This document shows positions 10,820 to 52,881 of a stretch of 64,000 nucleotides of DNA, one piece after another (position 1 is the stretch's first letter; every line of letters starts with the position of its first letter). Below the pieces are notes generated by a model. It worked only from the letters and a program-made list of their open reading frames with translations. It made no database searches and had not been told where the DNA came from. Location: NCBI RefSeq assembly GCF_055900595.2, contig NZ_CM148325.1. One strand, given 5' to 3'. The translations under genes were made by a program, and so were the position numbers.

Positions 10820-10902
10820 CCCAGAGGTATTGATAGGTGAAGTCAACTTCGGGTTGAGCACATGAATTACACCAGCCTGCGCAGATGCGCAGGTTTTTTT
10901 TT
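10820..10902 (+). ncRNA. omrB: OmrB small regulatory RNA
   Basis: Starts cccagaggtattgataggtga..., ends with hairpin cctgcgcagatgcgcagg plus a T9 run; about 83 nt; paralogous to the downstream copy. Confidence 0.85.
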
Positions 10903-11016: not shown

Positions 11017-11104
11017 CCCAGAGGTATTGATTGGTGAGATTATTCGGTACGCTCTTCGTACCCTGTCTCTTGCACCAACCTGCGCGGATGCGCAGGTTTT
11101 TTTT
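11017..11104 (+). ncRNA. omrA: OmrA small regulatory RNA
   Basis: Starts cccagaggtattgattggtgag..., same conserved 5' seed and 3' terminator (cctgcgcggatgcgcagg plus T8); about 88 nt; immediately upstream of aas. Confidence 0.85.
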
Positions 11105-47009: not shown

Positions 47010-47086
<77 letters not shown>

Positions 47087-47119
47087 TCACCGTACTGCTT
47101 TACTTCATCAAATTTTGAT

Positions 47120-47196
<77 letters not shown>

Positions 47197-47229
47197 TCAC
47201 CGTACTGCTTTACTTCATCAAATTTTAAT

Positions 47230-47306
<77 letters not shown>

Positions 47307-51194: not shown

Positions 51195-51385
51195 GGTACT
51201 CCTCGGCTTGATGCACCGATCGTGACGCAAAATTCACTTTGATACAAGGAGAGTGCTAACCATCAGAATTATCTGGATATCCTGGCGAAGCCGCGTAAGT
51301 AACATATGCTAAATAGTGTTAGGCGTTAATTTTAGCCTGTTAATCAATACTATTAAGATTTATTAATCGCTTTAAGGAGAAGATG

Positions 51386-51613
51386 ATGAAAAAGACTGCC
51401 GCAATTATTTCTGCCTGTATGCTGACTTTTGCCCTGAGCGCCTGTTCCGGTTCGAACTATGTGATGCACACCAATGACGGACGTACCATCGTCTCTGACG
51501 GCAAACCACAGACTGATAACGATACCGGTATGATTTCGTATAAAGACGCTAATGGCAACAAACAGCAGATCAACCGTACCGACGTGAAAGAGATGGTCGA
51601 ACTGGATCAGTAA
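51386..51613 (+). CDS. ygdI: Small lipoprotein YgdI (DUF903)
   Basis: 75 aa; signal peptide with lipobox LSAC; paralog of ygdR; aggaga RBS 5 nt upstream. Confidence 0.88.
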
Positions 51614-51629
51614 TTCGCGATCGCAAGGT

Positions 51630-51835
51630 AAAAAAAAGCACCGCAATTAGGCGGTGCTACATTAATCACTATGGACAGACAGGGTAAATGTACAGGAAGT
51701 GAAAAAAGGTAGCTTTGCTACCATGGTCTGAATCGCAGACCAATTGCAAACACAACAACACAACATCACAACCGTAAGCCAAAAGTTCACCAGAACACGC
51801 ATTCCGATAAAACTTTTCGTTCCGGCTCAGGAAGT
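51630..51835 (-). ncRNA. gcvB: GcvB small regulatory RNA
   Basis: Minus strand reads ACTTCCTGAGCCGGAACGAAAAGTTTTATCGGAATGCGTGTTCTGGTGAAC...GTTGTGTTGTTGTGTTTGCAATTGG...GCACCGCCTAATTGCGGTGCTTTTTTTT: G/U-rich seed region and terminal hairpin plus U8; divergent from gcvA. Confidence 0.9.
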
Positions 51836-51963
51836 GCCGCCACTATAGGTATTTGCTGGTAGAAGCTCAACGGACAATTTATAATGGCTCAGATTAAAAA
51901 AACTAATAGGTTACACAGAGTGATCTAATTGTTAAATTCATTTAACATCAAAGTTTAAAAGCC

Positions 51964-52881
51964 ATGTCTAAACGATTACCACCGCTAAATGCCTTACGAG
52001 TTTTTGATGCCGCAGCACGCCATTTAAGTTTCACTCGCGCAGCAGAAGAGCTTTTTGTGACTCAGGCCGCAGTAAGTCATCAAATCAAGTCTCTTGAGGA
52101 TTTTCTGGGGCTAAAACTGTTCCGCCGCCGTAATCGTTCACTCCTGCTGACCGAGGAAGGGCAAAGCTATTTCCTCGATATCAAAGAGATATTTTCGCAA
52201 TTAACCGAAGCGACACGTAAACTCCAGGCCCGTAGCGCCAAGGGGGCGTTGACGGTCAGTTTACTCCCCAGTTTCGCCATTCATTGGTTGGTTCCACGAC
52301 TTTCCAGCTTTAATTCAGCTTATCCGGGAATTGACGTTCGCATCCAGGCGGTTGATCGTCAGGAAGATAAGTTGGCGGATGATGTTGACGTGGCGATATT
52401 CTATGGTCGGGGCAACTGGCCGGGACTACGGGTGGAAAAACTTTACGCCGAATATTTATTGCCGGTGTGTTCGCCGCTACTGCTGACAGGCGATAAACCC
52501 TTGAAGACCCCGGAAGACTTGGCTAAACATACGTTATTACATGATGCGTCTCGCCGTGACTGGCAGACATATACTCGCCAATTGGGGTTAAATCATATCA
52601 ACGTTCAGCAAGGACCAATATTTAGTCATAGCGCCATGGTGCTGCAAGCGGCTATCCACGGGCAGGGAGTGGCGCTAGCGAATAACGTGATGGCGCAATC
52701 TGAAATTGAAGCCGGACGTCTTGTTTGCCCGTTTAATGATGTTCTGGTCAGTAAAAACGCTTTTTATCTGGTTTGTCATGACAGCCAGGCAGAACTGGGT
52801 AAAATAGCCGCCTTTCGCCAATGGATCCTGGCGAAAGCCGCTGCTGAACAAGAAAAATTCCGCTTTCGTTATGAACAATAA
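51964..52881 (+). CDS. gcvA: Glycine cleavage system transcriptional regulator (LysR family)
   Basis: 305 aa; N-terminal LysR-type HTH (LSFTRAAEELFVTQAAVSHQIKSLE). Confidence 0.94.
   Translation: MSKRLPPLNALRVFDAAARHLSFTRAAEELFVTQAAVSHQIKSLEDFLGLKLFRRRNRSLLLTEEGQSYFLDIKEIFSQLTEATRKLQARSAKGALTVSLLPSFAIHWLVPRLSSFNSAYPGIDVRIQAVDRQEDKLADDVDVAIFYGRGNWPGLRVEKLYAEYLLPVCSPLLLTGDKPLKTPEDLAKHTLLHDASRRDWQTYTRQLGLNHINVQQGPIFSHSAMVLQAAIHGQGVALANNVMAQSEIEAGRLVCPFNDVLVSKNAFYLVCHDSQAELGKIAAFRQWILAKAAAEQEKFRFRYEQ

Follow-up and report, generated by a model that had tools for sequence, protein, structure and literature searches.

Convergent genes in bacteria may end so close to one another that a single palindrome serves the 3' ends of both transcripts, and the junction between the lipoprotein gene ygdI and the small RNA gene gcvB raises the question of how one hairpin can do so when only one of the two strands carries a run of uridines behind it. 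The junction was analysed here in a stretch of 64,000 nucleotides taken from contig NZ_CM148325.1 (NCBI RefSeq assembly GCF_055900595.2), which is referred to as the window throughout. A first-pass annotation, made from the sequence, had recognised a GcvB gene of 206 nt on the minus strand, and had proposed that its terminator hairpin may terminate both transcripts. Our best explanation, which we hold with high confidence, is that the region is gcvB, and that the hairpin is the GcvB terminator and also sets the 3' ends of both the GcvB and the ygdI RNAs. How the ygdI transcript comes to end there is a separate matter, on which the readings considered below carry much lower probabilities.

The region 51630..51835 (-) is the known E. 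coli gcvB in its usual location, and as a gene it adds nothing new. When the whole window was scanned with Rfam cmscan, the GcvB covariance model (RF00022) matched at exactly the coordinates of the first-pass annotation, with 199 bits against a gathering score of 42, an E value of 1.1e-46 and an alignment spanning model positions 1-204 of 204. Sequence comparison showed that all 206 of the 206 nt are identical to MG1655 b4443 (NC_000913.3 2942696..2942901); seven substitutions were present in the surrounding 851 bp compared, and none fell within gcvB. The gene order in the window, csdA (-), ygdI (+), gcvB (-), gcvA (+), ygdD and rlmM, matches that of K-12, and the order of gcvA, gcvB and ygdI is unchanged in Salmonella. 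The identification as GcvB thus has three supports: the covariance model, a sequence without a single mismatch to the annotated gene of K-12, and synteny. Furthermore, an 801-bp stretch around gcvB was found in 5,425 of 5,426 complete E. coli genomes, with at least 99% identity in 5,384 of them, and the folding of the GcvB RNA beats all 200 shuffled sequences (z-score -3.6).

The neighbours of the gene are equally familiar. On one side lies ygdI (51386..51613, +), a DUF903 lipoprotein gene convergent with gcvB, assigned from the open reading frame list, a match to Pfam PF06004 (E 7e-24) and the RefSeq annotation. On the other side lies gcvA (51964..52881, +), a LysR-type regulator gene supported by the open reading frame list, the Pfam domains HTH_1 and LysR_substrate and the annotation; its ATG at 51964 stands 128 nt from the gcvB 5' end, which agrees with the divergent arrangement described at first pass. 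GcvB is an Hfq-dependent small regulatory RNA, whose transcription is activated by GcvA with glycine and repressed by GcvA/GcvR (PMC1557403), and which represses dppA, oppA and other transporter mRNAs in an Hfq-dependent manner (PMC1557403; Hfq co-immunoprecipitation in Sittka 2008). Since the sequence is identical to that of the gene in which this regulation was studied, the published regulation carries over to the gene in the window. Compared with GcvB of K-12 (RF00022, b4443), the gene has the same neighbours, the same regions R1 and R2, the same internal terminator t1 and the same terminal t2, and differs in nothing; it is that very gene, carried by another E. coli strain. GcvB is among the best-studied bacterial small RNAs, and the modest value of the locus lies in its junction with ygdI only.

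A consensus scan placed a candidate gcvB promoter at 51842..51870 (-), a sequence match consisting of TTGAGC, a 17-nt spacer and TATAGT; its -10 hexamer, ending 7 nt before the first base of GcvB, fits the annotated 5' end at 51835. Promoter function is known from Urbanowski 2000, as cited in PMC1557403. GcvB is transcribed leftwards, on the minus strand, from a promoter placed back-to-back with gcvA. The G/U-rich stretch R1 (GGUUGUGAUGUUGUGUUGUUGUGUUUGCAAUU; GcvB nt 63-94, 51742..51773, -) was located by direct reading and by the Rfam alignment; it is placed between stem-loops 1 and 2, is mostly unpaired in the centroid fold and aligns to an unpaired block of the Rfam consensus. From established knowledge of GcvB we take R1 to be the seed, as the first-pass annotation had also done for a G/U-rich segment; its partners are C/A-rich sites in mRNAs for transporters of amino acids and peptides. 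R2, the conserved CACUUCCUGUACAUUUACC at nt 135-153 (51683..51701, -), coincides with an upper-case, that is conserved, block of the Rfam consensus. Between R2 and R1 lies a terminator-like stem-loop followed by U6 (51702..51722, -), which is the published terminator t1 and gives a form of about 130 nt; in lacZ-fusion assays, t1 reportedly halts transcription of gcvB in about 90% of cases (PMC1557403), and no Term-seq 3' end is listed at it in Adams et al. 2021 (PMC7815308).

The terminal structure t2 was found by the terminator scan at 51630..51658 (-), and bears out the terminal hairpin and U8 noted at first pass. It consists of an 8-bp stem with six G-C pairs, a 6-nt loop and U8, and reads AGCACCGC-CUAAUU-GCGGUGCU from 51658 to 51637 (-), followed by the U8 tail at 51637..51630, so that base 51637 is common to tail and stem. 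The hairpin folds at -14 to -16 kcal/mol. On the GcvB side, these features point to a classical, canonical intrinsic terminator, in which a GC-rich stem of 8 bp is followed by the U8 that serves also as the Hfq-binding 3' end.

The same palindrome is met from the other direction almost as soon as translation of ygdI ends. The TAA stop codon of ygdI occupies 51611-51613 and is separated from the GcvB 3' end by a spacer of 16 nt, TTCGCGATCGCAAGGT. Beyond it the plus strand carries A8 (51630-51637), the complement of the GcvB tail, and its first A is the 17th base past the stop. The stem-loop itself extends from 51637/51638 to 51657/51658, and its stem begins 24-25 nt past the stop. The first-pass statement that the hairpin lies 17 nt beyond the ygdI stop is hence right for the first base of A8/U8, which is the GcvB 3' end, and wrong for the stem. 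With the stop and the GcvB 3' end just 16 nt apart, the ygdI 3' UTR has as its first structure the t2 palindrome on the opposite strand, which we list, from its fold and from Term-seq, as the 3'-terminal stem-loop of the ygdI mRNA (51637..51662, +). Read in this direction, the hairpin folds at -15.6 kcal/mol with a z-score of -5.2, and its stability is equal on both strands, at about -15 kcal/mol. In the matter of tails the two strands differ. The plus-strand bases past the stem-loop are ACATTAATCACT, and the tail on the ygdI side, ACAUUAAUCAC, has three U in eight and no U-run, and does not qualify as a terminator tail. The terminator scan found no plus-strand terminator at the hairpin and reports the minus strand only, because the plus strand is without a T-run. 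As an observation apart, a Hfq CLASH dataset (Iosub 2020) contains one chimera, a single read, joining the ygdI 3' UTR (AAGGUAAAAAAAAGCACCGCAAUUAGG, 51625-51651, +) with the aldB coding sequence, and ygdI also figures in a table from that study.

Published 3' ends show that the hairpin borders both RNAs. The check suggested at first pass, 3' end mapping on both strands, is available from the Term-seq data of Adams et al. 2021 (eLife, PMC7815308, supplementary file 1), which were converted to window positions via K-12 coordinates and which put both ends at one stem-loop. In all three growth conditions, a "primary" 3' end of ygdI is listed at MG1655 2942870/2942869 (-) (PMC7815308), which corresponds to 51661/51662 (+) in the window, 3-4 nt past the stem. 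It is supported by average reads of 36,630 in LB at OD 0.4, 1,164,820 in LB at OD 2.0 and 441,780 in M63 glucose (PMC7815308). The GcvB 3' end is listed at MG1655 2942894 (+) with 134,815 reads in LB at OD 0.4 (PMC7815308), corresponding to 51637 (-). The ends of ygdI and GcvB flank one stem-loop, and the two RNAs overlap by about 25-33 nt. The hairpin therefore marks the 3' ends of both RNAs, and both ends are already present in published tables. The proposal that one structure may terminate both transcripts is upheld in so far as the mapped 3' ends of both flank the hairpin; for ygdI, the end mapped at the hairpin may reflect termination or processing, which steady-state 3'-end maps cannot tell apart.

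The two ends behave differently across conditions. The full-length GcvB 3' end is not called in LB at OD 2.0 or in M63 (PMC7815308), and the ygdI end rises 12- to 30-fold from LB at OD 0.4 to M63 and LB at OD 2.0. The ygdI end is strongest where no full-length GcvB end is called, and is therefore independent of convergent gcvB transcription. Moreover, ygdI is listed among RpoS-dependent genes, which fits the high 3'-end signal in stationary phase. Two details of the GcvB ends were recorded alongside. The Term-seq end of GcvB falls on the first U of U8 (51637) and not on the annotated last base, 51630, which may be a technical effect of the homopolymer. Further Term-seq ends lie within R1, at window positions 51763 and 51768 (-), nt 73 and 68 of GcvB; they correspond to MG1655 2942768 and 2942763, with 132,094 reads in LB at OD 2.0 and 1,692 in M63 (PMC7815308), and suggest a stable 5' fragment, made of stem-loop 1 and part of R1, once full-length GcvB is gone.

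The breadth of this arrangement was examined with a pattern derived from conserved GcvB blocks, which retrieved 120 loci from bacterial genomes, 119 of them genuine. The remaining match, in a member of the Flavobacteriales (L114), was rejected as a chance hit without T-run, gcvA or ygdI. A gcvA homologue stands divergent and upstream at related GcvB loci wherever the fetched DNA reaches, Pasteurellaceae included. A ygdI gene convergent with gcvB is seen in Enterobacteriaceae, Serratia, Yersinia, Rahnella and Hafnia, whereas Morganellaceae, Edwardsiella and Pasteurellaceae have no ygdI at this place. Each of the 119 genuine loci carries the GcvB terminator hairpin, with folding energies from -11.6 to -17.3 kcal/mol, and in an alignment of 20 species four of the seven pairs of the t2 hairpin stay paired despite changes on both sides.

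Among 70 enterobacterial species with ygdI beside gcvB, the spacer between the ygdI stop and the GcvB 3' end measures 8-43 nt in 59, and a separate terminator on the ygdI strand was found in the spacer of none of these 59 short-spacer loci. The remaining 11 have spacers of 62-162 nt: L045 and L120 (Hafnia), L099 (Entomohabitans), five Rahnella loci (L034, L051, L071, L086 and L103) and three Yersinia loci (L012, L058 and L059). In the Hafnia and Entomohabitans spacers ygdI has a hairpin and T-run of its own, and similar hairpins are visible in the Rahnella spacers; in several long spacers, a palindrome placed between A- and T-runs looks like either ygdI's own terminator or a second bidirectional one. 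In most Enterobacteriaceae, then, the ygdI mRNA has no structure other than the GcvB terminator that could end or cap it. The plus-strand tail ACATTAATCACT is conserved in 50 of the 70 species, and was considered as a sign of selection for ygdI termination; it was set aside, since these bases are part of GcvB as well and their conservation says nothing on how ygdI ends.

On the ygdI side, the hairpin is probably a weak or collision-assisted stop, a barrier to 3' exonucleases, or both. The reading that survives best, although we put it somewhat short of an even chance, is that polymerases coming from ygdI read through the hairpin and stop downstream, at Rho or on collision with promoter complexes of gcvB and gcvA, after which PNPase or RNase II trims the RNA back to a protective hairpin. 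The position of the ygdI end, just past the stem, resembles the trimmed ends of Rho-terminated transcripts. The DNA downstream is also of a suitable kind, as the plus-strand stretch 51728..51805, which is the complement of the GcvB seed, contains 26 C and 9 G in 78 nt, and few stretches of the window are as rich in C and as poor in G: compared with all 78-nt windows on both strands of the 64 kb, it ranks in the top 0.4% by C minus G and in the top 0.06% by C/G ratio. This stretch is rut-like and, going by its base composition, may serve as a Rho-loading site; any ygdI read-through would then come to its end beyond the hairpin, plausibly through Rho acting on the C/A-rich complement of the seed.

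For such a course of events the closest known parallel comes from Dar & Sorek 2018, in whose Rho-terminated mRNAs a stem-loop protects the 3' end, and ends at stem-loops lacking a U-tract have rut sites just downstream. The ygdI hairpin is like these stem-loops in being a stable stem-loop without a U-tract, with the 3' end immediately downstream and a C-rich, G-poor sequence further on. It differs from them in being the terminator of the opposite gene and not a dedicated element, and in that Rho dependence was not detected: the bicyclomycin experiments of Adams 2021 (supplementary file 2, PMC7815308) list no Rho region on the ygdI strand in the interval from ygdI to gcvA. This counts against read-through followed by trimming, although the test has little sensitivity at this junction, with gcvA on the ygdI strand inside the 800-nt downstream window and ygdI weakly expressed at OD 0.5. 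Moreover, Rho-dependent ends are without upstream A-tracts (Dar & Sorek), whereas an A8 precedes the stem at this junction, there solely as the complement of GcvB's U8.

The second reading, a true bidirectional intrinsic terminator, supposes that polymerase arriving from ygdI is released at the stem-loop despite the poor U-tract, and we regard it as possible but rather unlikely. The ygdI end at the hairpin is precise and very strong in three conditions, the same absence of a called Rho region on the ygdI strand (PMC7815308) speaks in its favour, and most Enterobacteriaceae have no room for another terminator. Convergent 3' ends that overlap at one stem-loop are the published signature of overlapping bidirectional terminators in E. 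coli (Ju, Li & Liu 2019, as cited by others; Wang et al. 2022), and the junction is like them in this respect. It departs from them in that a U-run is present in the GcvB direction only, with ACAUUAAUCAC on the plus strand, and in that the ygdI end does not need active gcvB. A typical bidirectional terminator carries an A-tract on one side of the hairpin and a U-tract on the other, so that a hairpin and a U-run are met in both directions. At this hairpin the plus strand lacks the U-run and is passed over by the terminator scan, and the ygdI end lies 3-4 nt past the stem as against the usual 7-8 nt for intrinsic termination. Read-through with trimming is accordingly rated somewhat above bidirectional termination, and a mixture of both is plausible.

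Head-on collisions between polymerases from gcvB and ygdI, which would set both 3' ends with the stem-loop fixing their position and which Wang et al. 2022 present as needed against read-through at convergent pairs and as positioned by a stem-loop, are very improbable here, and were rejected as the main cause of the ygdI end, as this end forms without appreciable gcvB transcription and peaks, in M63 and in LB at OD 2.0, when GcvB is not detectably made.

In the literature, no paper was found treating the junction of the ygdI/gcvB pair, and Wang et al. 2022 make no mention of gcvB or ygdI. A match for "bidirectional terminator" together with "gcvB" was discarded, as it concerned a synthetic terminator in a reporter plasmid and not the ygdI-gcvB locus. 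The junction shows clearly, and across many species, how the terminator of a small RNA gene can also provide the 3'-end structure for a convergent mRNA lacking a U-tract, and it offers a handy natural test case for distinguishing bidirectional termination from hairpin protection after downstream termination.

A regulatory reading can be placed on this asymmetry, which we consider improbable. The junction would act as an asymmetric insulator, in which ygdI read-through, or the perfectly complementary RNA of the ygdI 3' hairpin, affects gcvB, and the seed complement loads Rho. Without a U-tract, some polymerases would get beyond the hairpin and go on transcribing gcvB in antisense, in the direction of the gcvB and gcvA promoters, and the C/A-rich complement of the seed would serve as the Rho loading site that stops them. 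The basis cited for this reading is the RpoS dependence of ygdI together with its 3'-end signal, about 30-fold higher in stationary than in exponential phase. If it were true, ygdI read-through or the 3' hairpin RNA might contribute to silencing GcvB whenever the cells are not growing fast in rich medium.

Further features were recorded elsewhere in the window. A strong Rho-dependent termination region lies on the gcvB strand at 51380-51630 (-), corresponding to MG1655 2943134 (+), with a Rho score of 10.3 and p 2e-71 (PMC7815308); it is antisense to the start of ygdI and upstream of csdA. Transcripts which pass the GcvB terminator, or which start antisense within ygdI, are stopped there by Rho before they reach csdA. 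A candidate antisense start within ygdI is provided by a promoter-like site at 51558..51530 (-), found as a consensus match. At a greater distance, Rfam identified tandem genes for small RNAs of the OmrA-B family (RF00079) at 10820-10901 and 11017-11104 (+), with 86 and 97 bits, and three tandem tRNA-Met (CAT) genes, 110 nt apart, occupy 47010-47306 (-).
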